This document shows, piece after piece, positions 5,392-31,794 of a stretch of DNA of 32,000 nt. Under the pieces are notes generated by a model. The model was not told the origin of the DNA. It searched no databases and saw only the letters and a list, made by a program, of their open reading frames with translations. This DNA comes from Synechocystis sp. PCC 6803 substr. PCC-P (GTDB lineage: Bacteria; Cyanobacteriota; Cyanobacteriia; Cyanobacteriales; Microcystaceae): assembly GCF_000284455.1 (NCBI RefSeq), contig NC_017039.1, positions 690,001 to 722,000 on the forward strand, written 5' to 3'. Numbering within the stretch: the first letter of the stretch is position 1; each line of letters begins with the position of its first letter. The position numbers were made by a program, and so were the translations under genes.

Positions 5392-5976
5392 CTAATTACT
5401 TTGATAATCAGGTTCATTGCCGGGTTTCCATTTAATGTTGCAACCAATGCTGGGCTTTTGTTCCGTCGGCACAGGACTGCCGGCCAGCACTAGATCCATG
5501 GCCTGTCTCAGGTCCACTCCGGTAACGGGCAAACCATTGCTAGGGCGACTGTCATCTAACTGGCCCCGGTAGGCCAATTTCCCCTGGGCATCAAACAAAA
5601 AGAAGTCGGGGGTGCAGGCTGCTCGGTAGGCCTTGGCGATCGCCTGGGTTTCGTCGTACAGTACCGGGAAGCAATAGTCCCAATCCTGGGCCATTTTTTT
5701 CAGGCCTGGGGGAGCGTCATCGGGGTATTTTTCTATATCGTTAGCGCTGATGGCCACCATGGCTAAACCAGAGTTTTGGTAATCCTTCCCCAACTGACTT
5801 AACTGGGCCTGGATGTGTTTGACAAAGGGACAATGACAACAGATGAACATTACCAATAGCCCTTTTTCTCCCATGGCTTCCCCTAGGGTGAGGGGCTGTT
5901 CCGCAGTCACGTCCCAAAGGGAAAAGTCCGGTGCTTGGGTACCAAGGGCAAGCATGGTGGAGGGAGTTAAAACCAT
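5392..5976 (-). CDS. Thioredoxin-fold thiol-disulfide oxidoreductase (AhpC/TSA-like)
   Basis: The 194-aa ORF has a redox motif context (LLVMFICCHCPFVKH) and lies 78 bp upstream of rnb on the same strand. Confidence 0.78.
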   Translation of the reverse strand: MVLTPSTMLALGTQAPDFSLWDVTAEQPLTLGEAMGEKGLLVMFICCHCPFVKHIQAQLSQLGKDYQNSGLAMVAISANDIEKYPDDAPPGLKKMAQDWDYCFPVLYDETQAIAKAYRAACTPDFFLFDAQGKLAYRGQLDDSRPSNGLPVTGVDLRQAMDLVLAGSPVPTEQKPSIGCNIKWKPGNEPDYQSN

Positions 5977-6076
5977 AGTTAGAGCAGTTCGTTACATTTT
6001 GTTAATCAAAGACCCAAGCTATCATGGGGGTTGGAGTTTTTCCCCTCTGCTGGAATTTTTTTAGTTTAAAACGTCC

Positions 6077-8074
6077 ATGAGTCATCGTCCCCGTTCCGAT
6101 CGCCATAGTTTCTCCAGCCCTAGCCGCTTTTGGCACCGTTTGGGGATGGGTTTACTGGTAGCTGGCACCCTAGCCCTACCGGTATCTACCCTGGCCCAGG
6201 AAGGGGGAGAAGGGGCCCAACCCAAGGCCAGTCCCAGTCCCATCCAATCCCCTAACTCCAGCAATGGAGAAGCCACACCCCGCTCCTTTTTTAACTCTGG
6301 CTCCCCCCGGTCTGCTGAACCGAAAATGAACTATGGGCAGTTGATCGATGCCATTAAAGCTAATCAAGTGGCCAAAGTGGAAGTGGACACTAACCGCCGC
6401 CAGGCGATCGTTACCCTCAAGGATGCTCCCCCAGGGTCCAAGCCCCAAACCGTGCAGTTACTAGACAATAATCCAGAGTTGCTCAACCTCCTGCGGAGCC
6501 GTTCCGAAACCATCGATTTAGACATCAACCGCACCCCGGATAATTCGGCCCTGTATGGTCTACTAACCAATTTGCTGGTGGTGGCTATTCTGATCGGTTT
6601 GGTGGTGATGGTGGTGCGACGTTCTGCCAATGCGTCGGGTCAGGCCATGAGTTTTGGCAAATCCAAGGCCCGGTTCCAAATGGAAGCAAAAACCGGTGTC
6701 GGCTTTGACGATGTGGCCGGCATTGACGAAGCGAAGGAAGAATTGCAGGAAGTGGTAACTTTCCTCAAGCAACCGGAAAAATTTACCGCCATCGGCGCAA
6801 AAATTCCCCGGGGTGTTCTACTCATCGGCCCTCCCGGTACGGGCAAAACCTTATTAGCTAAGGCGATCGCCGGGGAGGCGGGGGTGCCATTTTTCAGCAT
6901 TTCCGGTTCAGAATTTGTGGAAATGTTTGTCGGGGTGGGGGCTTCCCGGGTCAGGGATTTATTCAAAAAAGCTAAGGAAAATGCCCCCTGCCTAGTATTT
7001 ATCGATGAAATTGATGCGGTGGGTCGACAACGGGGTGTGGGCTATGGCGGCGGCAACGATGAACGGGAACAAACCCTCAACCAATTGTTGACGGAAATGG
7101 ATGGCTTTGAGGGCAACAGCGGCATCATTGTCATTGCGGCCACCAACCGCCCCGATGTGCTGGATTTGGCCCTTTTGCGGCCAGGACGGTTCGATCGCCA
7201 GGTGACGGTGGATTACCCCGATGTCCAGGGCCGGGAATTAATTTTGGCAATCCACGCCCAAAACAAAAAATTGCACGAAGAGGTGCAGTTAGCGGCGATC
7301 GCCAGGAGAACTCCCGGATTTACGGGGGCAGATTTGGCCAACGTGTTAAATGAAGCGGCCATTTTCACCGCTCGGCGGCGCAAGGAGGCCATCACCATGG
7401 CGGAAGTGAATGATGCCATTGACCGGGTGGTGGCGGGGATGGAAGGTACACCCCTAGTGGATAGTAAAAGTAAACGCTTAATTGCTTACCATGAAGTGGG
7501 CCACGCCTTGATTGGCACCCTCTGTCCTGGCCACGATCCGGTGGAAAAAGTTACCCTCATTCCCCGGGGCCAAGCCCAAGGTTTGACCTGGTTCACCCCT
7601 GATGAAGACCAAAGCCTCATGACCCGCAACCAAATGATTGCCCGCATTGCAGGATTGTTGGGGGGGAGGGTGGCCGAAGAAGTTATTTTTGGCGACGACG
7701 AGGTGACCACCGGAGCCGGTAACGACATTGAAAAAATCACCTACCTAGCCCGACAAATGGTGACGAAACTGGGCATGTCTTCCCTGGGTCTAGTGGCCTT
7801 GGAAGAGGAAGGCGATCGTAACTTTAGCGGCGGAGATTGGGGCAAGCGTTCCGAATATTCCGAAGACATTGCCGCCCGCATTGACCGGGAAATCCAAGCC
7901 ATTGTCACCGCTGCCCACCAACGGGCCACCCGCATTATTGAAGAAAATCGTAATTTAATGGATTTACTAGTCGATGCGCTCATCGATCAAGAAACCATTG
8001 AAGGGGAGCATTTTCGGCAACTGGTGGAAAGTTATCAACAATCTCAAAAACAGCCTGCTCTAGCCGGTAAGTAG
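6077..8074 (+). CDS. ftsH: ATP-dependent zinc metalloprotease FtsH
   Basis: Walker A is [13 protein letters not shown] and Walker B is LVFIDEIDA. The second region of homology and the HEVGHAL zinc site are present, with an N-terminal TM helix. 665 aa. Confidence 0.97.
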
Positions 8075-8089
8075 CCCCCTATCTGTGCA

Positions 8090-8560
8090 ATGTCCGATCC
8101 TCGTACAATCTATTTTCAACCCAGAAAACCGGAAAACTCCCCCAAGGGCGGTAAATTTTGGGGTGTATTACTATGGCTTAGTTTGCTCAGTATGATGCCG
8201 GTGCAGGGTTGTGCCCCTGCTGACCAAGGTTTATCCCCGGAAGGGCAAAACTCCCCTGCCATTGCCACCCCGTCTTCTTCCCCTAGTTCTTTAATTTCCC
8301 AATCCCCCATGCTTCCCCAGGCGATCGCCGACAAAATTATTGCTGACCTTGCTCAACGTACCGGCGAACCGGCCAGTGCGTTTGCAGTCCAGTCCTCAGA
8401 AAACAAAACCTGGCCCGATAGTTGCCTCGGCTTGGCCCAGGAAGGGCAAATGTGTGCCCAGGTGATGACCCCAGGCTGGCAAGTGACGGTGCAATCGGGG
8501 CAAAAAAATTGGGTTTACCGCACTAACCAAAATGGCCGCACTATTTTATTGGAATCCTAG
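8090..8560 (+). CDS. Hypothetical exported protein or lipoprotein
   Basis: The 156-aa ORF starts 16 bp after the ftsH stop. It has a hydrophobic N-terminal segment ending in a lipobox-like VQGC. I recognise no domain. Confidence 0.55.
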   Translation: MSDPRTIYFQPRKPENSPKGGKFWGVLLWLSLLSMMPVQGCAPADQGLSPEGQNSPAIATPSSSPSSLISQSPMLPQAIADKIIADLAQRTGEPASAFAVQSSENKTWPDSCLGLAQEGQMCAQVMTPGWQVTVQSGQKNWVYRTNQNGRTILLES

Positions 8561-8775
8561 CTCCCAGCAGGGATTTTCTTTAACTCGGTCAACACTAATG
8601 ATTTAACAAACCGGGGCTTAGGTCCCAAATAGTTGCGGAGATTTTTGGCGATCTACAGCAATGCTCCCAGCATCTGTCTTGGGCAGGACTTTTCCATAGG
8701 TTGCATGGAATTTAATCAATGGTAAGTGATTATACTCACAATTATTCCAGTGATTTTTGATATTTATTCTGAACA

Positions 8776-8794
8776 GATAATGCTAACTTAATAG
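8776..8794. promoter_or_regulatory. Fur-box-like site upstream of feoAB
   Basis: GATAATGCTAACTTAATAG matches GATAATGATAATCATTATC at 10/19 positions, with the left half 7/7. The surrounding 8725-8815 is AT-rich with several (G/A)AT(A/T)AT hexamers. Confidence 0.35.
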
Positions 8795-8824
8795 TTGAGA
8801 ATTATTTGCAGTTTTGGGAAAACC

Positions 8825-9064
8825 ATGACGTTATTGGATTTATCGGTGGGTCAGTTGGCTTTTGTGGAGAAAATTTTACTAGGAAACCACGGTCAGGGGT
8901 TAGTTAATCGCCTAGAAGCAATGGGAATAATTCCTGATAAACCAATTCAATTGCTCCGCAAGGCTGGTTTGGGGGGACCACTCCACCTCCGCATTGGTAG
9001 CACCACCGAAGTGGCCATGCGCCGTAGTGAAGCCCAATTGGTGCAGATTACCTTAGGAGAGTAG
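8825..9064 (+). CDS. feoA: Ferrous iron transport protein FeoA
   Basis: This is a small SH3-like FeoA pattern (MTLLDLSVGQLAFVEKI ... GIIPDKPIQLL ... LRIGSTTEVAMRRSEA) immediately upstream of feoB. The track ORF starts at a TTG (8795). I prefer the in-frame ATG at 8825. Confidence 0.85.
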   Translation: MTLLDLSVGQLAFVEKILLGNHGQGLVNRLEAMGIIPDKPIQLLRKAGLGGPLHLRIGSTTEVAMRRSEAQLVQITLGE

Positions 9065-9071
9065 GGCGGAG

Positions 9072-10916
9072 ATGGTGAGTCATTGCCAAAGGGGGTCAGT
9101 CCAGTCCAGTCGTCCAGATGTGAAAAAAAGGGTTGCTTTTATTGGGCAGCCCAATACAGGTAAATCCACTTTCTTCAACCGGATCACCAAAGCCAATGCG
9201 GCGATCGCCAACTGGCCGGGGTTGACAGTGGACTTATTCCGGGCGGTGGTGCCGTTACAGGGGGAACTAATCGAGTTTGTTGATCTGCCGGGCATCTATG
9301 ACCTCAATGGCTTTTCCGAAGATGAACGGGTGGTGCAACGTTTCCTTGCTAACTATGCCGTCAATTTAGTGGTGGTGGTGGTGAACGCTGCCCAAATTGA
9401 CCGACAAATTCGTCTGCTCCTCCAGGTACAAACCCTAGGCATTCCGGCGATCACCCTCTTAAACCTGGCCGACGAAGCTAAGCGCTACGGAGTGCAAATT
9501 GACGTGGCTGCTCTCCAGGAACGGCTTGGTCTGCCGCTCTATCCCATCAGTGCAAAATACGGAACGGGTTGTAGTCGGGCCATGGATGCCATTGGTCGGG
9601 CGGTGAAGGATCAACCAGAAGCCTACCAAATCCCCAATCTGGTTAATGTTCTTTCCGATCACCCCGTGGCGATCGCCGACATGGAAACGGCCCTGGCCGG
9701 TGTGGTGCAGATGCCATCCCCCAATGCTCGTACCCTCACCAATGTCATTGACGGGGTGATGCTTCATCCCGTTTTTGGCCTACCCATCTTTTTCGCTTCT
9801 ATGTTTGGGGTATTTTGGGTAATTTGGCATGTGGGTTTGCCCAGCGCCGATCCCGTAGATGCGGTAACGGGTTGGGTGCAAAGCAATATTTTAGAGCCGT
9901 TATTTTCCCCCCTACCCACCATCCTGCAAGGACTGCTGTTGGACGGTATTTGGACTGGGTTTGCCGCCCTACTTTCCTTTGTCCCCTTGGTGGCGATCTT
10001 TTTCATTGTCATGGGAATCCTAGAGGGCAGTGGCTATCTTTCCCGGGCCGCGTATCTGATGGATGCCCTCATGGGGCGACTGGGGCTAGATGGACGGAGC
10101 TTTGTGCTGCAAATGATGGGTTTTGGCTGCAATGTCCCGGCCATTATGGGCACTAGGGTCATGCGTAGCCGGGGAATGCGACTTTTATCTATGTTAGTCA
10201 TTCCCTTTTCTCTCTGCTCTGCCCGCCTGCAAGTATTTGTTTTTATCCTGGCGGCTGTTATGCCCGGCACCCAAGGGGCGATCGCTCTGTTTTTACTGTA
10301 CTTAATGAGCTTTGTGGCTGCCTTCACCGTGGCCGCCATTCTAAGTCGTTTTCATTACTTCCAAGCCCGGGACCCCTTCGTATTAGAATTACCCCCCTAT
10401 CGTTTGCCCACCTTTAAGCAGGTATTTTTGCGAGTGTGGGGAGAAATGCGGGAGTTTGTTGCCCGTTTATCGATGTTTATGGTGATTGGTAGTAGCCTCA
10501 TTTGGTTTTTAACCAGCTTCCCCCAAGGTAGTACGGGTTTAGAAACCTTTGCGGGACGCATTGGCAGTGTTTTCCAACCATTAATGAATCCCTTGGGCAT
10601 CAATCCCTTTTTAACGATTTCTTTGATTTTTGGTTTTGTCGCCAAAGAAGTTCAAATAGCAGCCCTAACTGTTATTTATGGTCTCAACAACTCCGAAGCC
10701 GTCTCTGACCAAATCCACAGTACAGTAACCTTTGCCCAGGGTTTTAGCTACTGTTTATTTAGTTTGATCTATATTCCTTGCCTTACTACCCTTGGGGCGA
10801 TTTGGGGTGAAAGTAAATCCCTTGCCTACACTGCTATTTCTGTGGCTACTCCCCTGGTAACGGCCTGGCTATTTAGCTTTATTTTCTACCAAAGCTTTTC
10901 CTGGCTTGGTTGGTGA
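9072..10916 (+). CDS. feoB: Ferrous iron transporter FeoB
   Basis: The N-terminal G-domain has a G1 motif (GQPNTGKST) and a DLPG G3 motif. It is followed by a polytopic membrane domain. 614 aa. Confidence 0.95.
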   Translation: MVSHCQRGSVQSSRPDVKKRVAFIGQPNTGKSTFFNRITKANAAIANWPGLTVDLFRAVVPLQGELIEFVDLPGIYDLNGFSEDERVVQRFLANYAVNLVVVVVNAAQIDRQIRLLLQVQTLGIPAITLLNLADEAKRYGVQIDVAALQERLGLPLYPISAKYGTGCSRAMDAIGRAVKDQPEAYQIPNLVNVLSDHPVAIADMETALAGVVQMPSPNARTLTNVIDGVMLHPVFGLPIFFASMFGVFWVIWHVGLPSADPVDAVTGWVQSNILEPLFSPLPTILQGLLLDGIWTGFAALLSFVPLVAIFFIVMGILEGSGYLSRAAYLMDALMGRLGLDGRSFVLQMMGFGCNVPAIMGTRVMRSRGMRLLSMLVIPFSLCSARLQVFVFILAAVMPGTQGAIALFLLYLMSFVAAFTVAAILSRFHYFQARDPFVLELPPYRLPTFKQVFLRVWGEMREFVARLSMFMVIGSSLIWFLTSFPQGSTGLETFAGRIGSVFQPLMNPLGINPFLTISLIFGFVAKEVQIAALTVIYGLNNSEAVSDQIHSTVTFAQGFSYCLFSLIYIPCLTTLGAIWGESKSLAYTAISVATPLVTAWLFSFIFYQSFSWLGW

Positions 10917-11074
10917 AATTAATCATTAATTCACCCCCTGGGCACTCAAATGACGAGTTTTGTTTGGCAGTTTTCAGTTTAGTAAAGATGCAGGAAAACC
11001 TTTGATAAATGGAAGTGTCAACGCTTCAAACTAAGCTTACTTCCGTATCATAATAGTAGTTTTTGCTTGGACAA

Positions 11075-11111
11075 CCGGAGGGGGAGAGACCACTACATTT
11101 CCCCCGGTTTT
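11075..11111 (+). terminator. Putative intrinsic terminator downstream of feoB
   Basis: CCGG(A)GGGGGA at 11075-11085 pairs with TTTCCCCCGG at 11098-11107. That gives about 10 pairs including two G-U and one bulged A, with a 12-nt loop, followed by TTTT at 11108-11111. It lies 159 nt after the feoB stop. Confidence 0.45.
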
Positions 11112-11239
11112 ACGTAACGGTTTGATGACCCAGTTGAAAACCCTTGACAGCTCTTCAAGGCATAGCCACCCAATACGGAGGTTTTTTACTTGAGCTTTTG
11201 CCCACCTTGGATGGCTTGGGGAGCTTTACTCGGCCTATT

Positions 11240-11452
11240 CTACAGGCTATTTAACCAACCAATGACGCCGTGCCCTGTGACCACTTCCATAATAAGGAGG
11301 GAGGCAAAACCAATCATGGCGAAACGACCATTCATTTTTTCGGCGTATTTAGTCCAACCCGCTTGTACGGAAGAGTCGACGTAAACCTCTGGTTCGATGG
11401 CAAAGTTGTTGAGACGGTTGTCCTGATCCAAGCGGAAGCCACGGGTGGTCAT
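11240..11452 (-). CDS. hliA: High-light-inducible protein (one-helix CAB/ELIP/HLIP family)
   Basis: The 70-aa ORF has the chlorophyll-binding helix motif [16 protein letters not shown]. The symbol is inferred from size, strand and the neighbouring slr1393. Confidence 0.85.
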
Positions 11453-14369
11453 AATTGGATTACTCCTAGTAAAAGTCTATGTTAACTATTGTAACACTTT
11501 TTTAAGGAATGTAACAATGTCCCCTTCTTCCCATGGCACCGCAGTCCAACAGGCGATCGCCGATCAACTGTTGGAAATGATTCTCCAGTCCCAGGATTTA
11601 CATAATGCTTATCGACTGGTGGTGGAAGGATTACAGCGGGGTTTGGGGGTAGACCGGGTGTTGTTGGTGCAAAATGCAGTGTTCCCGAACCGTCAATCCC
11701 GCCTTGTGGCCCAGGCCATCGCTCCGGCCAGGGATATTATGCTTTTGGATGAACCCTGTGCCGATTGTCGTTGGCTCCATCTGCTGGGGCAGCTTCCCCA
11801 CTACGGGCTGTGGACAGTGTGGGAGGGGGAAGGTGAATTTGTCCAACTAGATCCGGTCCAGGGGGAATTTTGTCGAACTTTGGGGATTAAAAGTCTATTG
11901 CATTTGCCCTTGGTGATTAACCAGCGTCATTGGGGAGTTCTCAGTCTCCAATATCTCCACCAAGCCCGGCCCTGGCCCCTGGAGGATCAACAATTTGCCC
12001 AGCGCATTGCCCATCTATTCTGTTTGGGTTTGATGAAAACGGAGCTTTGGATTCATTGTCAGAACCATAAAAATGCGTTGCAGACTGTGGTGGCCGAGGG
12101 CCAGGTCCAAAGGGAAACCTACCTTAAATCCGCCCAACGGGAACGGGCCATTGCTGATGTTATCGATAAAATTCGCTTTGCCCTTGATCTACGCTCCCTC
12201 TTTCAAACTACGGTGACGGAGGTGCGGAAATTGTTGGTAGCAGACCGGGTAATGATTATTAAAGTTAGGCAGAATAAAAATTTTTCCTGGGGGGAAATTC
12301 AGGCGGAAGCCCAAACGGACGACAAGCTATGCCTCTTGCCTCCAAAGGAAAGAGTGCCTTTGTCATCGCGATGGATTGATCATTTTGCCAAGGGATTGAT
12401 TTTAGCCATGGATGACACCGACGATCAAAGGGCGGATTTCGATCAATCAATGTTGGCACTAGCCAAGGCTAATTTGGTGGTGCCCCTCTTTTCTGGCGAT
12501 CGCCTCTGGGGGGTATTGTCGGTGCATCAGTGTGATGGGCCCCGGGTGTGGGAAAGTTCGGACATCGAGTTTGCCCTCAAAATTGCCCTCAACTTAGGGG
12601 TGGCGTTACAACAGGCAGAATTATTGACCGAGTCCCAACGGCGATCGACCGCTCTCCAAAGTGCCCTGGGGGAAGTGGAAGCCCAAAAGGATTATCTCGC
12701 CCGCATTGCGGAGGAAGAACGGGCCCTCACTAGGGTGATTGAAGGCATTCGCCAAACGTTGGAGTTACAGAATATTTTTCGGGCCACCAGTGATGAGGTG
12801 CGTCATTTGCTCAGTTGTGACCGGGTGTTGGTCTATCGCTTTAATCCGGACTGGAGCGGGGAATTTATCCATGAGTCGGTGGCCCAAATGTGGGAACCAC
12901 TGAAAGACTTGCAAAATAATTTCCCCCTCTGGCAAGACACCTATCTCCAGGAAAATGAGGGGGGTCGTTACCGCAACCATGAGAGTTTGGCGGTGGGGGA
13001 CGTGGAAACAGCCGGTTTTACCGATTGCCATTTGGACAATTTGCGCCGGTTTGAAATTCGTGCCTTTTTAACTGTGCCAGTGTTTGTGGGGGAACAACTC
13101 TGGGGCCTGTTGGGGGCCTATCAAAATGGGGCTCCCCGCCATTGGCAAGCGAGGGAAATCCATTTGCTCCATCAAATTGCCAATCAGTTGGGCGTAGCAG
13201 TGTACCAAGCCCAGTTGCTGGCCCGCTTCCAAGAGCAGTCTAAAACCATGGAAAATACTCTGGCTGATCTGACGGCGATCGTTGATAACCTGGCCGATGG
13301 TCTATTGGTGATTGATCTATTTGGTCGCATTACCCGCTACAATCCGGCCCTGTTGGCCATGTTTGATCTGGAGGGCCTAGAACTATTGGGCGCGGGGGTG
13401 GATGCCTATTTCCCCGAGACTTTGAATCAGTTGTTAGCTAAACCGGAAAGGGAAGAGCAAAAACTGGTCACCGCTGATGTGGAATTAAGTCAGGGCCGCC
13501 AAGGACAAGCTTTGATCACTAGCATTACTTCCCATGAAAATGGCTGCGAATATCCCCAATGCCTGGGGGCGGTGATTATGATCCGGGATGTGACCCACGA
13601 GCGGGAAGTGGAGCGGATGAAAACGGATTTCTTGGCCACGGTGTCCCATGAATTACGTACTCCCCTCACTTCTATTTTGGGTTTTGCCACGGTAATTCAG
13701 GATAAATTAAACCGAGTGATTATCCCGGAGTTGGATTTGGCCCAGCCCCACCTTGGCAAGGCTACGGAACGGGTGATGCGGAATTTGGCCATCATTGAGT
13801 CGGAGGCCCAGCGCCTAACTGTTTTGATCAATGATGTGCTAGATATTGCCAAAATGGAAGCAGGACAGGAATCCTGGCAGGAACAACCCTGTGCCATTGG
13901 CCCCATTATTGAACGGGCGATCGCCACCATTACTCCCCAGGCTCAGAAGAAAAATATTAGTTTGCAAGGGGATTTGGAACCGGGTTTGCCTGATTTTATC
14001 GGAGACGAAAACCGGATTTTGCAGGTGGTGCTTAATTTACTCTCCAATGCGGTCAAATTCACCCCTAAGGGTTTAATCACTGCCCGTAGCCACTTTCACC
14101 AAAATTATCTCTGGGTAGAAATTATTGACCATGGCCCCGGTATCCATCCAGCGGACCAGGAGAAAATTTTCGAGCCGTTCCAACAGGGAGGGGGAGATGT
14201 GCTCACTGATAAACCCCAGGGTACGGGGTTAGGATTGCCCATTTGCAAAAAAATTGTTGAACACCACGGCGGTACCATTGGCGTTAATAGTAGTCTGGGT
14301 CGGGGTAGTACTTTCTATTTTTCCTTGCCTGTCCCAGTTCCTGCGGTGGAAACTTCCCCTGCTGTCTGA
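11445..14369 (+). CDS. slr1393: Multi-GAF sensor histidine kinase with a cyanobacteriochrome GAF domain (Slr1393-type)
   Basis: The ORF has three GAF-like regions, a PAS-like segment, an HisKA H-box ([16 protein letters not shown]) and HATPase N/G boxes (LLSNAVKF; [18 protein letters not shown]). The third GAF carries the bilin-binding DxCH motif ([12 protein letters not shown]). Its Cys codon at 13026-13028 is residue 528 of the 974-aa longest ORF, which matches the remembered Cys528. The longest ORF starts at a GTG overlapping the hliA start. ATG 11517 (M25) is a more plausible start. Confidence 0.93.
11478..11515 (-). promoter_or_regulatory. HLR1-type (RpaB-binding) repeat array upstream of hliA
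   Basis: The minus strand reads GTTACATT cc TTAAAAAA gt GTTACAAT ag TTAACATA. These are four 8-mers at 10-bp phasing, matching (G/T)TTACA(T/A)(T/A) at 8/8, 6/8, 8/8 and 7/8. The array ends 25 nt upstream of the hliA ATG. Confidence 0.65.
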
Positions 14370-16156: not shown

Positions 16157-17233
16157 ATGAAACGTCCCACCCTCTACTGTGCAATTACCGGCCATGGTTT
16201 TGGCCATGCGGTGCGGACTGCTTGCATTGCCCGCCGGGTCCAGGAACTTTGCCCTGATGCGTTGATAATCATGGCTACCCGTAGCCCCCGTTGGTTGCTG
16301 GAGTGTTATTTGGAAAAACCCTTTATTCACCGCCCAGTGGCTTTTGATGTTGGCGTGGTACAGGCAGATAGTTTACAGATGGATGAAAAGGCGACCCTGC
16401 AAGCTTTACAGGATATTTACAAGCGGGAAAATGCCCTGGTGGCCACGGAGTCTAACTATTTACGGAACAATCGGGTGGATCTAGTGCTGGCGGACATTCC
16501 GGCCCTGGCAGTGGCGATCGCCCATCGAGCAAATATTCCCTGTTGGATGAGTAGTAATTTCGGTTGGAATTTTATCTATCGAGATTTTAGTGATCAATTT
16601 GGGGTAGTGATTGAGAAAATTGAACGGGATTATCGCCAATGTGATTTATTATTCCGGTTGCCCTTATCGGAACCGATGGAAATTTTCCCCTATCAAATCC
16701 AAGCTGGCTTACTGGGGGGCGGTCCTCAATATGGGGAGCAGAGTTTAAGAAATACCTTTGCCATTAAAACTGCTAAGGAAAAAACTATTTTGCTCACCTT
16801 TGGGGGTTTAGGTTTAGAGGCTATTCCCTACCAAGTATTAACTCAATTTCCCGACCATCAATTTATTACCTTTGACATCCAAGCTCCTAAGTTAGATAAC
16901 CTGACCATTATCAATGATAAAACCTATCGCCCGGTGGATTTAATGCCCCTTTGCGGACGGGTATTTTCCAAGCCTGGTTTTGGTACCTTTGCTGAAGCGT
17001 TAAAGTTAGAAGTCCCGATTATTTCCCTCACCAGGGATGGTTTTGCGGAAGCGCAAGTTTTACTGGCAGGTTTGCAGAACTACGGAGAGCACCAAATTGT
17101 GCCCCACCAGCAATTTTTCGCCGGCAACTGGGATTTTTTGTTGGAAAGCCCCCAAAAACCTAGGTTGGATCAGAAGTTAGACAAACATGGCGATCGCCAG
17201 ATAGCAGAAAAAATCGTCGCCCAAATTAGTTGA
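16157..17233 (+). CDS. Putative GT-B fold glycosyltransferase (MurG/GT28-like)
   Basis: The 358-aa ORF has an N-terminal ITGHGFGHAVR glycine-rich loop and a C-terminal FSKPGFGTFAEAL...VPII motif, both typical of GT1/GT28 enzymes. The functional call is tentative. Confidence 0.6.
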   Translation: MKRPTLYCAITGHGFGHAVRTACIARRVQELCPDALIIMATRSPRWLLECYLEKPFIHRPVAFDVGVVQADSLQMDEKATLQALQDIYKRENALVATESNYLRNNRVDLVLADIPALAVAIAHRANIPCWMSSNFGWNFIYRDFSDQFGVVIEKIERDYRQCDLLFRLPLSEPMEIFPYQIQAGLLGGGPQYGEQSLRNTFAIKTAKEKTILLTFGGLGLEAIPYQVLTQFPDHQFITFDIQAPKLDNLTIINDKTYRPVDLMPLCGRVFSKPGFGTFAEALKLEVPIISLTRDGFAEAQVLLAGLQNYGEHQIVPHQQFFAGNWDFLLESPQKPRLDQKLDKHGDRQIAEKIVAQIS

Positions 17234-17234
17234 T
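17186..17234 (+). repeat. Left copy of the island-flanking direct repeat (the functional 3' end of the glycosyltransferase gene)
   Basis: These 49 bp align to 20067-20146 with 47/49 identities plus 18-bp and 13-bp indels. The repeat begins at a HIP1 site (GCGATCGC, 17190-17197). Confidence 0.85.
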
Positions 17235-17363
17235 TTTGTCCCCCAACTCGGAAAAAGTCAGGGGATTTTGGTAAACCATAAACCTGGGGTTAACCTCTGG
17301 GAAGCCGTTCATGGTTGTTCATGCCGTATGCTTTTACGATCTAAATGCTATCTGACACCTCCG

Positions 17364-17392
17364 TTGACTTAATAAAACTTAATCCAAATAAT
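17364..17392 (+). promoter_or_regulatory. Candidate sigma70-type promoter facing the cassette array
   Basis: TTGACT at 17364-17369, a 17-nt spacer, then AATAAT at 17387-17392. This sits about 130 bp upstream of the first cassette boundary. It is a sequence match only. Confidence 0.3.
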
Positions 17393-17538
17393 TTGACTTA
17401 GTGGTTCTTTTCAGGCATTCTCTCAGCATTAGAAGGCTGAGTATGGGTTTTAATGCTGTTTATCCTTACAAGTTAAGTGATAAATGTGCATTAAGGATTC
17501 CCATTGCAGTCTAATTACTGGTTAGCTGCAAATAAAAA

Positions 17539-18156
17539 ATGAAAAAACCAGATATTGATGTGTATTGCAATGTAATGGAAGAAATCAAGCGACGAACAGG
17601 CGTTATCGATTTTTTTCTATCTGGTAATGGTCACGCTTTATGTGAACCTACAACACTGGAATCAATTGCGCTGCAAATCAGGAAAATCCTAGAGCTAATA
17701 GCTATGGCGTCACTTGTAGCAAACGAAAAAGAATACAAAAAGGTATATTCCAATTTTGCCAGCGCATGGAATGCAGAATATTTACTAAAAGACTTAGGCA
17801 GAATTAATCCTGATTTTTACCCTAAACCAGTCGTAGAGAAACTTTCTGATGACCCTAAAGTAAAAAATCGCCTAGCAGATCGTGACGAAGACTATCTAAC
17901 CAAAAATGAATTTATAAAAGTTTACAAGAAATGTGGCGCAATCATGCATGCGAGCAATCCGATGGGTCGCAAAATAGGCTATGAATACTACAAAAAGAAC
18001 ATTCCAGAATGGAGACAGAAGATAATAAACCTCCTAAACAACCACCAAATTAAGTTATTTAATCACTCTGGCTTTTATCTAATTCATATGAAAGAAGATC
18101 GTGATGATAAGGTACATTTTTATGAATTCGACCTTGTGCAAACCACAAGCAGCTAA
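17539..18156 (+). CDS. Cassette 1 ORF, hypothetical protein (205 aa), no recognised domain
   Basis: The ATG lies 12 nt after the cassette boundary. The stop codon (18154-18156) is embedded in the attC inverse core. The gene is AT-rich and the protein is Lys/Glu/Tyr-rich. Confidence 0.7.
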   Translation: MKKPDIDVYCNVMEEIKRRTGVIDFFLSGNGHALCEPTTLESIALQIRKILELIAMASLVANEKEYKKVYSNFASAWNAEYLLKDLGRINPDFYPKPVVEKLSDDPKVKNRLADRDEDYLTKNEFIKVYKKCGAIMHASNPMGRKIGYEYYKKNIPEWRQKIINLLNNHQIKLFNHSGFYLIHMKEDRDDKVHFYEFDLVQTTSS

Positions 18157-18222
18157 CAAAACGCTCGTTCGAGCGCAAACTACAATGCGCTTCGTTTGCG
18201 CTGCACAGCTTCAACGTTCGGC
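18151..18222 (+). other. attC site 1 (72 bp)
   Basis: R'' is AGCTAAC and R' is GTTCGGC. The stem GCGCAAAC (18173-18180) pairs with GTTTGCGC (18194-18201) and extends with bulged G18171 and C18166. About 5-nt unpaired spacers sit next to the R boxes. The L''-like GTTCGAGC resembles class 1 attC L boxes. Confidence 0.72.
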
Positions 18223-18290
18223 GGGCTTGCTTGCCAGCACTCTTTTCATTAAAATAGTATAGCAGTCTGTATTATCGGCATTCAACTCTG

Positions 18291-18914
18291 ATGGATAATC
18301 TAACCGACTTTGCATTCAAGCTCGGGAAGGTCGTTTACAAAGTTATTCGCGATGTCGAGGCATCAAAAGATGATTCGACCAAGCTCATCCAAGACCTTGG
18401 CGGCTTAAGCGGTGAAAAGATACTACTTCAGAAAATCGCCAAGTTTTGGAATCAGCAAGACCGCTGGGATAGACCCGATGGCCTCGTCATAGTAACTAGT
18501 CACAGACTTGTCTTTTTAGCTAAAATGAAGACGGTCGCATCAACAACAGATTATCTCAGCTTTCCATTGGGGTTGATTGACGAACTTGAAGCTACCACTG
18601 TATCTTGGGTCAGTCCAGCAATTGCATTTCACGTTAATTCGACGAAGTATATGTTCACATTCTTTGCCGGATCGGATGAAGTCGTTGATGCGATCCGATC
18701 GGCCAAGGTAACACTAGAATCAATATCCATTAATTCGCATTCAGATCCCTCAAGCACTGGGCGAGATATTCCTGTGCAACTCCTACCCGACATGATTCGA
18801 TTTCTATGCCCAGATTGTGAGGCTTCAGTCAGAGTTAGGCGTAAACAAGCAGGAAGGCTAGGAAAATGCCCCGAATGCGGTGGTGTTTCACGGATCCCAA
18901 TCGATGGAAGATAG
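18291..18914 (+). CDS. Cassette 2 ORF: PH/GRAM-like domain protein with a C-terminal CxxC...CxxC zinc ribbon (207 aa)
   Basis: The central segment (PDGLVIVTSHRLVFLAKMK ... YLSFPLGLIDELE ... YMFTFF) resembles bacterial PH/GRAM-like folds. The C-terminus is FLCPDCEASVRVRRKQAGRLGKCPECGGVSRIP. The domain call rests on my pattern recognition only. Confidence 0.7.
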   Translation: MDNLTDFAFKLGKVVYKVIRDVEASKDDSTKLIQDLGGLSGEKILLQKIAKFWNQQDRWDRPDGLVIVTSHRLVFLAKMKTVASTTDYLSFPLGLIDELEATTVSWVSPAIAFHVNSTKYMFTFFAGSDEVVDAIRSAKVTLESISINSHSDPSSTGRDIPVQLLPDMIRFLCPDCEASVRVRRKQAGRLGKCPECGGVSRIPIDGR

Positions 18915-19036
18915 AATGCCTTAGTCAACTTAAAGACATCCCAGATTGTTAGAAAGTCTAACCACCCAATGAGAACTAGGCGAAGGTTTTGTCAAGTCCT
19001 GAAGATGCCGTTCACCAGATCTATCTCATCATTGCT

Positions 19037-19127
19037 GCCGAACAAGCCCCTTGAGTGGACAGTCCGCCACCGGTCTTTTGCATTACAATTTTAGGGTTAC
19101 CACCTGCCCCTAGGGCCAGCGTTAGCA
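19037..19127 (+). other. attC site 2 (91 bp)
   Basis: R'' GCCGAAC is the exact reverse complement of GTTCGGC at the cassette 2 start. R' is GTTAGCA. Internal pairing is weaker (CCCT 19048-19051 with AGGG 19112-19115; GTGG 19055-19058 with CCAC 19100-19103). The site lies 122 bp after the ORF stop. Confidence 0.55.
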
Positions 19128-19146
19128 TTCAGAAAATCCACGAGAG

Positions 19147-19899
19147 GTGCGTCGCCCAATACAAATTCATCCTTTAATACACATTCAAAGCATGAATACT
19201 ATTGATTTTGAAAGAGTGATCAGAGCACTTATCAAAAGTGGATTTCTCTTTTCAGCTGCCGACTTCAATGAGCGCAGGCGTGCAGCTGATAAAGTAGCTA
19301 CATCTGGATTGATTGAAAAGACAAATTTTTGGTGCAACGTTGCAATAAAAGGTGCGATACCTGTTATCGAATCATCTTTCGACGTAGACATCCCTTCAAA
19401 TCAGTTCCGATTCAAGCCTTCTATGCAGGATTTCAATGTTAAAGAAGATGAATTGAGTGCAATGCTCTTAAAACTTGGGATGAATATGGATGCGGTTGCA
19501 TTTCGATATGCTTACTCCCAGCCAGTATTCGTAGGTGTGAAGTTTGCAGCATCTCTTTCGCCCGAAGCTCGAAGATCTCTTTTTGAGTCGTTTGATCGTC
19601 AGATGCTTAACTGTCTCTCCCTTACTTCTTCAATGAAAGCAGGTTTTGGAAGCGTAAAGATGTCAGTAACTGGATTCGTTTTATGGATATTTACGAATCA
19701 AAGCGGAGCAAATAATTTCAGCTCTGTGGAAAAGGAAAGCTTGAGAAAGATGCATTTTTGGGAGAAGGTTAATTCACTGTCCTGGGTCGTCGATCTTGAA
19801 ACGAACTCAATAGCTAAACACAAAGGGCTGCCAATCATTCTTGATTCAGTCTTTAATGTAAAGGCATTTGAGGATTCTCTGAAGCTTGACGAATACTAA
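19147..19899 (+). CDS. Cassette 3 ORF, hypothetical protein (250 aa from GTG 19147; 235 aa from ATG 19192)
   Basis: This is the only long ORF in cassette 3. The stop codon (19897-19899) lies inside the attC inverse core. I recognise no domain. Confidence 0.7.
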   Translation: MRRPIQIHPLIHIQSMNTIDFERVIRALIKSGFLFSAADFNERRRAADKVATSGLIEKTNFWCNVAIKGAIPVIESSFDVDIPSNQFRFKPSMQDFNVKEDELSAMLLKLGMNMDAVAFRYAYSQPVFVGVKFAASLSPEARRSLFESFDRQMLNCLSLTSSMKAGFGSVKMSVTGFVLWIFTNQSGANNFSSVEKESLRKMHFWEKVNSLSWVVDLETNSIAKHKGLPIILDSVFNVKAFEDSLKLDEY

Positions 19900-19981
19900 C
19901 AACCGAGCTGCACCGGAACGCCATAAGCTGTTTGGTTGGGTTACAAAGGTTATCTGCGTCTGGTGAGCTTAGTCGTTAGGC
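19894..19981 (+). other. attC site 3 (88 bp)
   Basis: R'' is TACTAAC and R' is the canonical GTTAGGC. AGCT(G)CACC (19906-19914) pairs with GGTGAGCT (19962-19969), leaving G19910 extrahelical. The imperfect stem continues inward. The 5-nt spacers are AACCG and TAGTC. Confidence 0.72.
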
Positions 19982-20066
19982 CCCATACAAAATTTAAGAC
20001 CTACCCACCAGAACTTCTTTGTCACCAGATTCTTACTGTAAGCGCCTCCGTGCTTTTGCAATCGTC

Positions 20067-20146
20067 CATGGCGATCGCCAGCAACGTTATGGTCGCCAGA
20101 TAGCAGAAAAAATTGTTGCCCAAATTGGCTAATGATATTAGTTGAT
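20067..20146 (+). pseudogene. Right copy of the flanking direct repeat: a displaced, still in-frame duplicate of the glycosyltransferase 3' end
   Basis: It encodes HGDRQQRYGRQIAEKIVAQIG*, versus HGDRQIAEKIVAQIS* at 17186-17233. Both substitutions in the shared Ile-Val codons are synonymous. It begins at HIP1 (20071-20078), and no homology exists upstream of 20067. Its last 7 bp overlap the cofG 3' end. Confidence 0.8.
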
Positions 20147-21079
20147 AAAAACTGATAGCCGTTGCTGTAAATCACAATTGAGCCAGGAAAAATAAGTGGG
20201 ATAAACTGGAAACCTTGGTTGCAATAAATAGCCATTTTCTTCTAGCAATTGACTTAGTTGATTCACCGATTGGTGATGATAATCAGGGTTAACTTCATCA
20301 ATGGGTACAATGCCACCTAAATCCCTAACTCCAGCAGCTAAACAAGCTAGTAGATCACTGAAATTTGGCACTAAATTAGGCGGTATTTGTAGGGTAATTT
20401 CTGCGGGTAATATTGCCCTTGCTAAGGTAATAACTTGCACCAATTTTTGTGGGCTGTAGGCGGAAATATTATCTGTTTGTTTTTGCCCAGGGCTATGGGG
20501 TTGCAAAATCACCTCTTGAATGTGGCCGTATTCTTGTTGAACATTGGCGATCGCCATTAAACTCTCTTCCACTTCCTGGTCAGTTTCCCCAATGCCCAGT
20601 AATAAGCCAGTGGTGAAAGGAATACCCAATTCCCCTGCTAATCGTAATTGTTCTAACCTGAGCTGGGGTTCTTTACTGGGGGCTTGACGATGCACTGTGG
20701 TTAATAGTCGGGGAGAAACCTGTTCCAGCATCAACCCCAGGGAAAAATTCACTTCCTTTAAACGAGCTATTTCTGATCGACTTAAAGGCCCCGCATTGGT
20801 GTGGGGATAAAATCCCAAATCTAGGGCGATTTTGCCTAGGTTATAAATAAGTTCAAACCAAGCTTTTCGGCGGGAAGATTGGGGATGCACTTCCCCCGCC
20901 AGAATTAAAATTTCCCTTATCCCCCGCCCTGCCAAACTTTCCAGTCGCTGTTTAGCAACGCTTTCGGTTAACCATTGGTCTTTTCTTGGCTCCTGCCGGA
21001 AATTGCAGTAACTACAACGGTTAAAACACTCGTAGGTGGGAACCAGAGTATAGGCGGGACTGTAAGTGATAGACAACAC
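20138..21079 (-). CDS. cofG: Radical-SAM FO synthase subunit CofG (7,8-didemethyl-8-hydroxy-5-deazariboflavin synthase)
   Basis: The N-terminus reads ITYSPAYTLVPTYECFNRCSYCNF (a CxxxCxxC cluster in CofG context). 313 aa. Confidence 0.8.
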   Translation of the reverse strand: MLSITYSPAYTLVPTYECFNRCSYCNFRQEPRKDQWLTESVAKQRLESLAGRGIREILILAGEVHPQSSRRKAWFELIYNLGKIALDLGFYPHTNAGPLSRSEIARLKEVNFSLGLMLEQVSPRLLTTVHRQAPSKEPQLRLEQLRLAGELGIPFTTGLLLGIGETDQEVEESLMAIANVQQEYGHIQEVILQPHSPGQKQTDNISAYSPQKLVQVITLARAILPAEITLQIPPNLVPNFSDLLACLAAGVRDLGGIVPIDEVNPDYHHQSVNQLSQLLEENGYLLQPRFPVYPTYFSWLNCDLQQRLSVFIN

Positions 21080-31503: not shown

Positions 31504-31794
31504 TTGTTCAGCTTTTGGTTAACTTTTCCCATGGCCCGCAAGCAAAAATTTCCCCATCTCCTCGGTTCCAAATGGACAGCCCAACAAAAAACCTGGGGTT
31601 GGCGACACTTCCAAGTGGTCAATCGACGGCAGGAGGGTCAGTGGGTTTTTGCGGAAATGGTGGCCAGTTGCGATCCGAAAGTGCGGTTTTGGCTCAATGC
31701 CCAACAACTTAAAGATGATCTGCTCTGGCGCTCGGGCTGGCAACCCCTCCAGGCCATGGAAAGGGATGAGGAAGATCAGATAGCGCTAAAATAA
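31504..31794 (+). CDS. Tryptophan-rich small conserved protein (TIGR02450-like)
   Basis: The sequence KFPHLLGSKWTAQQKTWGWRHFQVVNRR ... WRSGWQPL matches my memory of the Trp-rich family. The real start is probably ATG 31531 (MARKQKF). Confidence 0.55.
   Translation: MFSFWLTFPMARKQKFPHLLGSKWTAQQKTWGWRHFQVVNRRQEGQWVFAEMVASCDPKVRFWLNAQQLKDDLLWRSGWQPLQAMERDEEDQIALK

Follow-up and report, generated by a model that had tools for sequence, protein, structure and literature searches.

A probable integron cassette array without a nearby integrase in the chromosome of Synechocystis sp. PCC 6803

A 32-kb stretch of the chromosome of Synechocystis sp. PCC 6803 (the window, i.e., the whole of the DNA analysed here) contains three consecutive hypothetical genes between a glycosyltransferase-like gene and a radical-SAM gene, and each of the three is followed by a putative integron recombination site (attC). 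Taken as a whole, positions 17522-19981 are very probably a three-cassette integron array without a nearby integrase, i.e., an attC site cluster that lacks an integron integrase (CALIN), which is sedentary and would have been inserted by an integron integrase (IntI) acting in trans. The components of the array are listed below, with coordinates on the + strand of the window.

17521-17527, + strand: core GTTAGCT; its G/TT junction (17521/17522) is the 5' boundary of cassette 1
17522-18216, + strand: cassette 1, comprising open reading frame 1 (ORF1) and its own attC up to the crossover G
17539-18156, + strand: ORF1, 205 aa
18151-18222, + strand: attC1, 72 nt
18151-18157, + strand: inverse core AGCTAAC, the R'' of attC1
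18216-18222, + strand: core GTTCGGC, in the R' position of attC1 but belonging to cassette 2
18217-19121, + strand: cassette 2, comprising ORF2 and attC2
18291-18914, + strand: ORF2, 207 aa
19037-19127, + strand: attC2, 91 nt
19037-19043, + strand: inverse core GCCGAAC, the R'' of attC2
19121-19127, + strand: core GTTAGCA, which opens cassette 3
19122-19975, + strand: cassette 3, comprising ORF3 and attC3
19192-19899, + strand: ORF3, 235 aa, with an alternative GTG start at 19147
19894-19981, + strand: attC3, 88 nt
19894-19900, + strand: inverse core TACTAAC, the R'' of attC3
19975-19981, + strand: core GTTAGGC, the terminal R' of attC3

This layout had been proposed from the letters alone (the sequence-only reading), and its description of the locus proved accurate. 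All seven 7-mers, four cores and three inverse cores, have exactly the positions and letters that had been given. Each of the three intervals holds a single + strand ORF, and every cassette opens with bases that complement the R'' of its own attC (7/7, 7/7 and 6/7 for cassettes 1, 2 and 3). The stop codons of ORF1 and ORF3 fall within inverse cores, as had been claimed for two of the three, and the site lengths of 72, 91 and 88 nt lie inside the expected range of approximately 57-141 nt. The cassettes are joined at G/TT crossover points, so that the 5' end of each retains the six final bases of the R' that belongs to it.

The sequence-only reading had also implied that the 7-mers are significant in themselves, and this was its sole overstatement. 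In the formal version of the pattern, a link consists of a GTTNNNN core that is followed 300-1500 nt downstream by its exact reverse complement and, 55-140 nt further on, by a new GTT core; a chain was counted when two exact links were followed by a third link of at least 6/7 and then GTT, and one ORF per interval was not demanded. Such chains occur on average 15.2 times per dinucleotide-shuffled window and approximately 30 times in the real window, and looser versions occur hundreds of times. As the chain is common in shuffled sequence, it carries no statistical weight alone. What raises the array above chance is the attC structure detected by covariance models, the improved fold of attC1 in its circular form and the comparative evidence.

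A scan of the window against Rfam matched no family, and none for attC was among its results; covariance models were built de novo. The first model (R1) was built from 13 bona fide attC sites of class 1 integron plasmids (aadA1, aadA2, aadB, aadA16, aadA5, orfF, aacA4, blaVIM-2, dfrA27, dfrA5, dfrA12, arr-3 and aac(6')-29a), aligned with their R''/R' and L''/L' pairs. The second (R2) was built from 40 attC sites from 18 foreign loci, none of them from the Synechocystis genome under study. The scan of the window with R1 covered both strands and used no filters.

With R1, attC3 was the best match in the window (19894-19981, + strand, 26.9 bits, E 6e-5) and attC1 the second best (18152-18222, + strand, 12.2 bits, E 0.5), while attC2 (19037-19127, + strand) scored 7.6 bits, within the noise. 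The background maxima of this model were 9.3 bits in the rest of the window, 10.8 bits in 81 kb of related cyanobacterial DNA and 12.5 bits in 65 kb of plasmid DNA, in which the true attC sites scored 36-52 bits. With R2, the three predicted sites were the top three matches of the window: attC3 at 29.0 bits (E 2e-5), attC1 at 25.8 bits (E 2e-4) and attC2 at 18.5 bits (E 0.013). The next match in the window reached 12.5 bits, and the maximum in 89 kb of control cyanobacterial DNA was 13.1 bits. Part of the rise in the attC1 score is due to homology, since R2 includes relatives of attC1; its training set includes no close relatives of attC2 or attC3. The matches agree with the coordinates proposed earlier to within one base, and on the predicted strand. 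At least two attC sites detected by covariance model fall on the same strand within 4 kb, as is the rule for CALINs.

The architecture of the sites was examined by folding. On both strands attC3 forms a canonical hairpin, in which two short spacers stay unpaired between the R box and the L box and the terminal stem is variable; the L box has one extrahelical G, on the '' arm, and the fold has z scores of -1.9 and -2.3. The pairing of AGCT(G)CACC with GGTGAGCT that had been read from the letters is genuine. In an array, the R' behind an attC is that of the next cassette, and a circular form was therefore reconstructed in which each site is followed again by the six bases that open the cassette it belongs to. 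attC1, which consists of R'' AGCTAAC, a 5-nt spacer, a bulged L box, a GCGCAAAC/GTTTGCGC stem and a 6-nt spacer, has a z score of -1.8 in the array form; when circular, this falls to -3.7 (top strand) and -4.4 (bottom strand), and the fold, (((((((.....(((.((.(.(((((((((...))))))))).)))))......))))))), has the canonical R-spacer-L architecture. A gain in folding upon re-joining is the behaviour predicted by the integron mechanism. Circular attC2 also closes through R''/R', yet its z scores are merely -1.0 and -1.8, and it is the weakest and most decayed of the three sites.

The arrangement R''-spacer-L''-variable stem-L'-spacer-R', with extrahelical bases on the '' arm, is thus seen directly in attC3, after reconstruction in attC1 and in part in attC2, which has kept its R pairing but has a weak L box.

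If the three intervals are cassettes, they should recur with the same boundaries in other arrays and other hosts, and the homology of cassettes 1 and 3 to such copies starts at 17522 and 19122, respectively. A metagenomic contig (L045) carries a copy of cassette 3 with 94.7 % nucleotide identity across window positions 19122-19968, and the match begins at the first base past the G of GTTAGCA. This copy sits among four attC sites (33.2, 16.4, 15.8 and 15.4 bits) and has different neighbouring cassettes. Its R'' is TGCTAAC, a 7/7 complement of GTTAGCA, from which it follows that the 6/7 match in Synechocystis (TACTAAC) is a later point mutation. The remaining cassettes of the contig obey the same rule (7/7, 6/7 and 7/7 in this array), as do class 1 arrays. 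In Dolichospermum flos-aquae (CP051206.1; L043, 9930-10711), cassette 3 is present at 88 % nucleotide identity with its attC decayed beyond detection, and looks like a fossil single cassette; its surroundings are rich in toxin-antitoxin and restriction-modification genes.

When the array was compared with PLSDB by blastn, the matches were confined to attC sites. attC3 is 82 % identical to an attC on plasmid pB of Kovacikia minuta CCNUW1 (NZ_CP083584.1), where it closes a cassette of a complete integron, and another matching site is found on Chroococcidiopsis plasmid pA. When these two sites, the Synechocystis site and that of the metagenomic contig were treated as a four-member family, 89.9 % of cells paired, compared with 32-43 % when the partners were slid, and three compensatory pairs were found, including a change from C-G to A-U in the L box that is specific to Synechocystis. 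In the Kovacikia integron (L068, 1083-9500), the annotated integron integrase shares 49.8 % identity with IntI1, the attC sites number at least five, and genes for a DNA cytosine methyltransferase and an AAA ATPase are among the cassettes.

For ORF1, 484 relatives were found; among the named ones, the closest are gammaproteobacterial, with amino acid identities of 85 % in Marinomonas ostreistagni, 81 % in an Oceanospirillales metagenome-assembled genome (MAG) and 79 % in Hydrogenovibrio crunogenus. The Marinomonas homolog (L038) is a single insert, with GTTAGCT upstream, AGCTAAC over the stop codon and a 24.9-bit attC directly after it. In the Oceanospirillales contig (L042), the homolog lies within an array: a 36.7-bit attC ends 12 nt upstream of its ATG, and more attC sites follow Abi_C, TIR_2 and other genes. 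The nucleotide homology of cassette 1 to the Marinomonas and Hydrogenovibrio (L040) loci starts at 17522/17523, just past the G of GTTAGCT, and stops in R''. The GC content of the cassette is approximately 37 %, against roughly 44-54 % in the flanks. The Oceanospirillales array (5653-10700) is itself split by an IS110-family transposase, and its Abi_C and TIR_2 cassettes lie upstream of the ORF1 homolog.

attC1 is approximately 88 % identical to several of the 11 attC sites on plasmid pTBH13 of Thiolapillus brandeum. On this plasmid (L067) the sites (22-37 bits) form an array on the minus strand (6171-13352) that lacks an integrase and occupies about half of the 13.5 kb. Its cassettes encode TIR, caspase, cytidine deaminase and FRG proteins and two toxin-antitoxin pairs, a cargo that looks defence-like.

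For cassette 2, the relatedness of attC2 to the attC sites of the contig carrying cassette 3 is not convincing at the sequence level; attC2 lies 122 nt beyond the stop codon of ORF2. ORF2 comprises a bacterial PH-like domain and a C-terminal CxxC...CxxC zinc ribbon (a weak zinc-ribbon match), and database entries for its homologs give PF14470 or a bacterial PH domain. Most relatives are 130-150 aa long and span just the first two thirds of ORF2. One relative (P0123, 56 %) lies in a cassette array adjoining a divergent tyrosine recombinase, which scores 466 bits on the TIGR02249 “integron integrase” model (cut-off 265), and the attC sites of that array score 29.1 and 46.2 bits. Another (P0125) is followed by a 28.5-bit attC. 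The three ORFs do not form a conserved syntenic operon; each stands alone in differing hosts and arrays, and movement cassette by cassette is thereby demonstrated. None of the three outcomes that the sequence-only reading had named as refuting it was seen when they were checked.

No function could be assigned to ORF1-ORF3 by comparison with Pfam, NCBIfam and PADLOC, apart from the weak zinc ribbon of ORF2. Confident AlphaFold models (pLDDT, the predicted local distance difference test score, of 87.6 and 83.2) had no fold match in the PDB below E 0.1. The sole hints from the models are of a HEPN-like fold for ORF1 and a PD-(D/E)xK-like fold for ORF3.

The large ORFs of the window have other assignments or none in Pfam and precomputed domain annotations, and no integron integrase is among them. 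A tblastn search of the window with IntI1 and environmental IntI sequences gave nothing credible, including no intI pseudogene, which bears out the earlier claim that no tyrosine recombinase is encoded in the 32 kb. One weak hit (31549-31686, E 0.025) lies inside an unrelated Trp-rich ORF of 96 aa (31504-31794, + strand) without recognisable relation to recombinases, and was rejected. No Synechocystis plasmid was among the best 40 matches of the Kovacikia IntI in PLSDB. A complete integron would have an adjacent intI, an attI and a Pc promoter; the array, with no intI in the window, is not one.

These observations agree with what is known of CALINs, which Cury et al. (2016, PMC4889954) defined and found to be common, and all the testable defining features of a CALIN, as which the locus had been classified from the letters, are present. 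As in CALINs (PMC4889954), at least two same-strand attC sites lie within 4 kb, each cassette has one co-oriented ORF, no intI is nearby, the array is small, its attC sites are heterogeneous and its cassettes are not resistance genes. Nothing essential sets it apart; its own particulars are the model-cyanobacterium host, the mixture of gammaproteobacterial and cyanobacterial cassettes and the pocket with a duplicated gene end that is described below.

The array also resembles insertions at attG-type sites, which include single attC sites lacking an integron integrase (SALINs) and small CALINs. Insertion by attC x attG-type recombination is among the listed origins of CALINs (Cury et al. 2016, PMC4889954), and IntI-mediated insertion of cassettes at genomic GWT sites has been shown experimentally (Loot et al., 10.1101/2022.09.11.507474). 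As in such insertions, the cassettes lie outside an integron platform and the junctions fit a G/TT (GWT) target, and the Marinomonas copy of cassette 1 resembles a single inserted cassette of this kind. Unlike them, the insertion in Synechocystis is inferred rather than observed, and its flanking direct repeat is no product of that reaction. The Kovacikia pB integron shares with the array a cyanobacterial host, the attC that is 82 % identical to attC3 and the same cassette architecture, but has its own integrase, divergent from the array, whereas none is encoded in the 32 kb around the Synechocystis array. Class 1 arrays (aadA, dfrA, aacA4) share the attC architecture and the rule that R'' complements the cassette start, and the dfrA12 attC, too, has GTTAGCA, a non-consensus core, as its R'; unlike them, the Synechocystis array is chromosomal and has no intI1, attI1, Pc promoter, 3' conserved segment or resistance genes.

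The array lies in a variable pocket bounded by a duplicated gene end; the parts of the locus on either side of the array are as follows.

17186-17234, + strand: left repeat copy, where the glycosyltransferase-like gene (16157-17233) has its native 3' end; belongs to repeat families D1 and D10; the gene end and the sequence downstream of it also occur in L005 and L006
17235-17298, + strand: left pocket end, conserved downstream sequence plus ATAAACCTGGGGTTAACCTC (17279-17298)
17299-17520, + strand: leader, non-coding and unique, 222 nt
19982-20066, + strand: right spacer, common to L005 from approximately 20038 (TAAGCGCCTCCGTGCTTTTGCAATCGTC...)
20067-20135, + strand: right repeat copy, a displaced glycosyltransferase 3' end with the translation HGDRQQRYGRQIAEKIVAQIG and a stop; it abuts the radical-SAM gene (20138-21079, minus strand)

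The imperfect repeats that flank the array (17194-17234 and 20093-20133, 88 % identical) each reproduce the final ~45 nt of the glycosyltransferase gene, and both are preceded by a shared CATGGCGATCGCCAG. A longer duplication of approximately 135 nt was considered and rejected, as the upstream extension is not significant (35 of 500 shuffles score equally). The left pocket end (64 nt) is 95 % identical to Synechocystis salina LEGE 00031 (L005, 89 %), which shares both the left end ATAAACCTGGGGTTAACCTC and the right end TAAGCGCCTCYGTGCTTTTGCAATCGTCCATGGCGATCGCCAGCAAC; in a related MAG (L006, protein 86 % identical), the match is limited to the first 43 nt. In the MAG the site is empty (9030-9120). 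In S. salina, the pocket (9030-9141 and 10473-10585) holds a Fic/DOC gene, with no attC detectable by R1 or R2. The empty site in one relative and the Fic cargo in the other imply that the pocket predates, and is independent of, the cassettes. The pocket's origin is not accounted for by IntI chemistry.

The array is identical in all PCC 6803-type assemblies examined by look-up of the exact flanking proteins, and a metagenome scan with the glycosyltransferase returned relatives that are all distant, none above 74 % identity, and added no variant of the pocket. The window contains 28 HIP1 octamers against 0.15 expected, as befits a cyanobacterial chromosome, none of them in the insert, and no tRNA genes. 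In both S. salina (10587-13064) and the MAG (9127-11628), a P-type ATPase gene of approximately 830 aa separates the pocket from the radical-SAM gene; the window lacks this gene, and its radical-SAM gene abuts the truncated repeat copy (20135-20138).

The leader has no homolog among the loci compared. Within it lie a strong, AT-rich, imperfect hairpin (17443-17504; z = -3.35 on both strands) that ends 16 nt before the first core and, just upstream of that hairpin, one that is terminator-like (17422-17441) and a promoter-like site (17364-17392). An attC or attI in the leader was considered and rejected: there is no covariance match at E up to 10 with either model, and the AT-rich hairpin is not attC-like. 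The right spacer likewise has no attC-like fold and no match to R1 or R2 at E up to 10. The conserved right end (ACCTAAC...CAGCAAC in L005; 20022-20092 in the window) was also rejected as a fourth attC, having no hairpin (z ~0) and no covariance match at E up to 10.

The explanation that best accommodates these observations is insertion of foreign cassettes by an IntI supplied in trans. The array is a mosaic, its cassettes stemming from more than one source integron, which is a typical feature of small CALINs: attC1 and ORF1 are of a marine gammaproteobacterial type, and attC3 of the type found in cyanobacterial plasmid integrons. An IntI in trans, e.g., one encoded by a plasmid integron like that of Kovacikia pB and present only transiently, would have inserted the cassettes at a GTT secondary (attG-type) site, and they may have entered singly or as one multi-cassette circle. 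The target would have lain in the pre-existing variable pocket downstream of the glycosyltransferase gene, and the terminal GTTAGGC would be the leftover half of the target site. The junction bases, G/TTAGCT and G/TTAGGC, are compatible with a GTT target. The predicted pre-insertion sequence is ...TAATTACTGG/TTAGGCCCC...; joining 17480-17521 to 19976-20040 gives ...TAATTACTGG/TTAGGCCCCATAC... (the stroke marks the junction). The array is now sedentary and partly decayed, as seen in the weak hairpin of attC2 and the change of the attC3 R'' from TGCTAAC to TACTAAC, and its remobilisation would need a supplied IntI.

Several observations weigh against this explanation. The uninterrupted target sequence was not found in any genome among the loci compared, and the route of insertion is a reconstruction. 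IntI chemistry produces no target duplication, and the duplicated gene end is therefore unexplained by it, as is the 222-nt leader (17299-17520). The Fic gene of S. salina, having no detectable attC, shows that the variability of the pocket need not be integron-driven. attC1 is significant only with the model that contains its Thiolapillus relatives. attC2 is marginal, being noise under the class-1-only model and reaching E 0.013 under the broader one, and in its array form it folds no better than shuffles. Finally, the direct search for intI covers the 32-kb window only.

The repeats raise the alternative that the whole 2.9-kb block, including the replacement gene end, was imported with the cassettes as passengers assembled elsewhere, either from another Synechocystis lineage, through uptake by natural transformation followed by recombination (homologous or illegitimate), or as an integrative islet of a non-integron type that targets the glycosyltransferase 3' end. 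This account has an appreciable, though clearly minority, probability. It would explain why an imperfect duplication of the gene's last ~45 nt brackets the block, and it fits both the pocket ends common to S. salina, whose cargo differs and is non-cassette, and the empty site of the MAG. An integrative element would have att repeats and a cognate integrase; repeats are present, though no recombinase lies within 17234-20092. The block has no integrase or transposase of any kind, and its right end neither folds like nor resembles a known att site. Moreover, import accounts for the pocket and not for the origin of the cassettes, and is compatible with IntI-mediated insertion in trans rather than opposed to it.

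It is improbable that the array is instead the remnant of a once complete chromosomal integron, from which intI and attI upstream of cassette 1 were deleted and the 222-nt leader left over. Loss of intI is an accepted origin of CALINs (PMC4889954), and a unique, non-coding leader with a promoter-like site and a structured hairpin just ahead of the first core is what such a deletion might leave. However, the leader is much too short for the remnants of intI, tblastn shows no signal of an intI pseudogene anywhere in the window, and the relatives have an empty site rather than an integron. The attC sites are also heterogeneous and belong to different families, unlike those of sedentary chromosomal integrons.

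Rather more doubtful is the proposal that the pocket is a recurrent, integrase-independent docking site for foreign genes, which in PCC 6803 has received cassettes and in S. salina a Fic gene, and which has stayed empty in a third lineage. If this were true, cassettes of plasmid integrons could become fixed in cyanobacterial chromosomes without attC x attI or attG recombination, e.g., by repeat-mediated recombination after transformation. The last alternative, that there is no integron element and that the 7-mers are chance matches at three ordinary hypothetical genes with terminator-like hairpins, is hardly credible and is already refuted: the ~15 chains per shuffled window and the unexceptional fold of attC2 in its array form are as it predicts, but the covariance matches lie far over background, the same cassettes recur with the same boundaries in true arrays and beside IntI, and attC3 has compensatory changes.

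Integrons and CALINs in Cyanobacteria are already on record at the phylum level; the literature search found no paper describing the Synechocystis array or linking integrons or attC sites to Synechocystis in substance. Three “hypothetical” genes of a much-used model cyanobacterium are thus horizontally acquired integron cassettes, with relatives in marine gammaproteobacteria, Nostocales and metagenomic arrays. The array concretely ties a chromosomal CALIN to the attC family of a complete cyanobacterial plasmid integron, and provides a boundary-resolved example of cassettes crossing phyla and settling outside integrons. It also flags the cassette genes as dispensable accessory DNA, and PCC 6803 is a tractable host in which to test IntI-dependent excision. 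The current understanding of integrons is unchanged by it.

Elsewhere in the window, the 12.5-bit match that ranked next after the three sites with R2 (656-765, + strand, E 0.5; AGCTAACAAT...GTTAGCC) lies within a CheW-like gene of the opposite strand and is probably due to chance.

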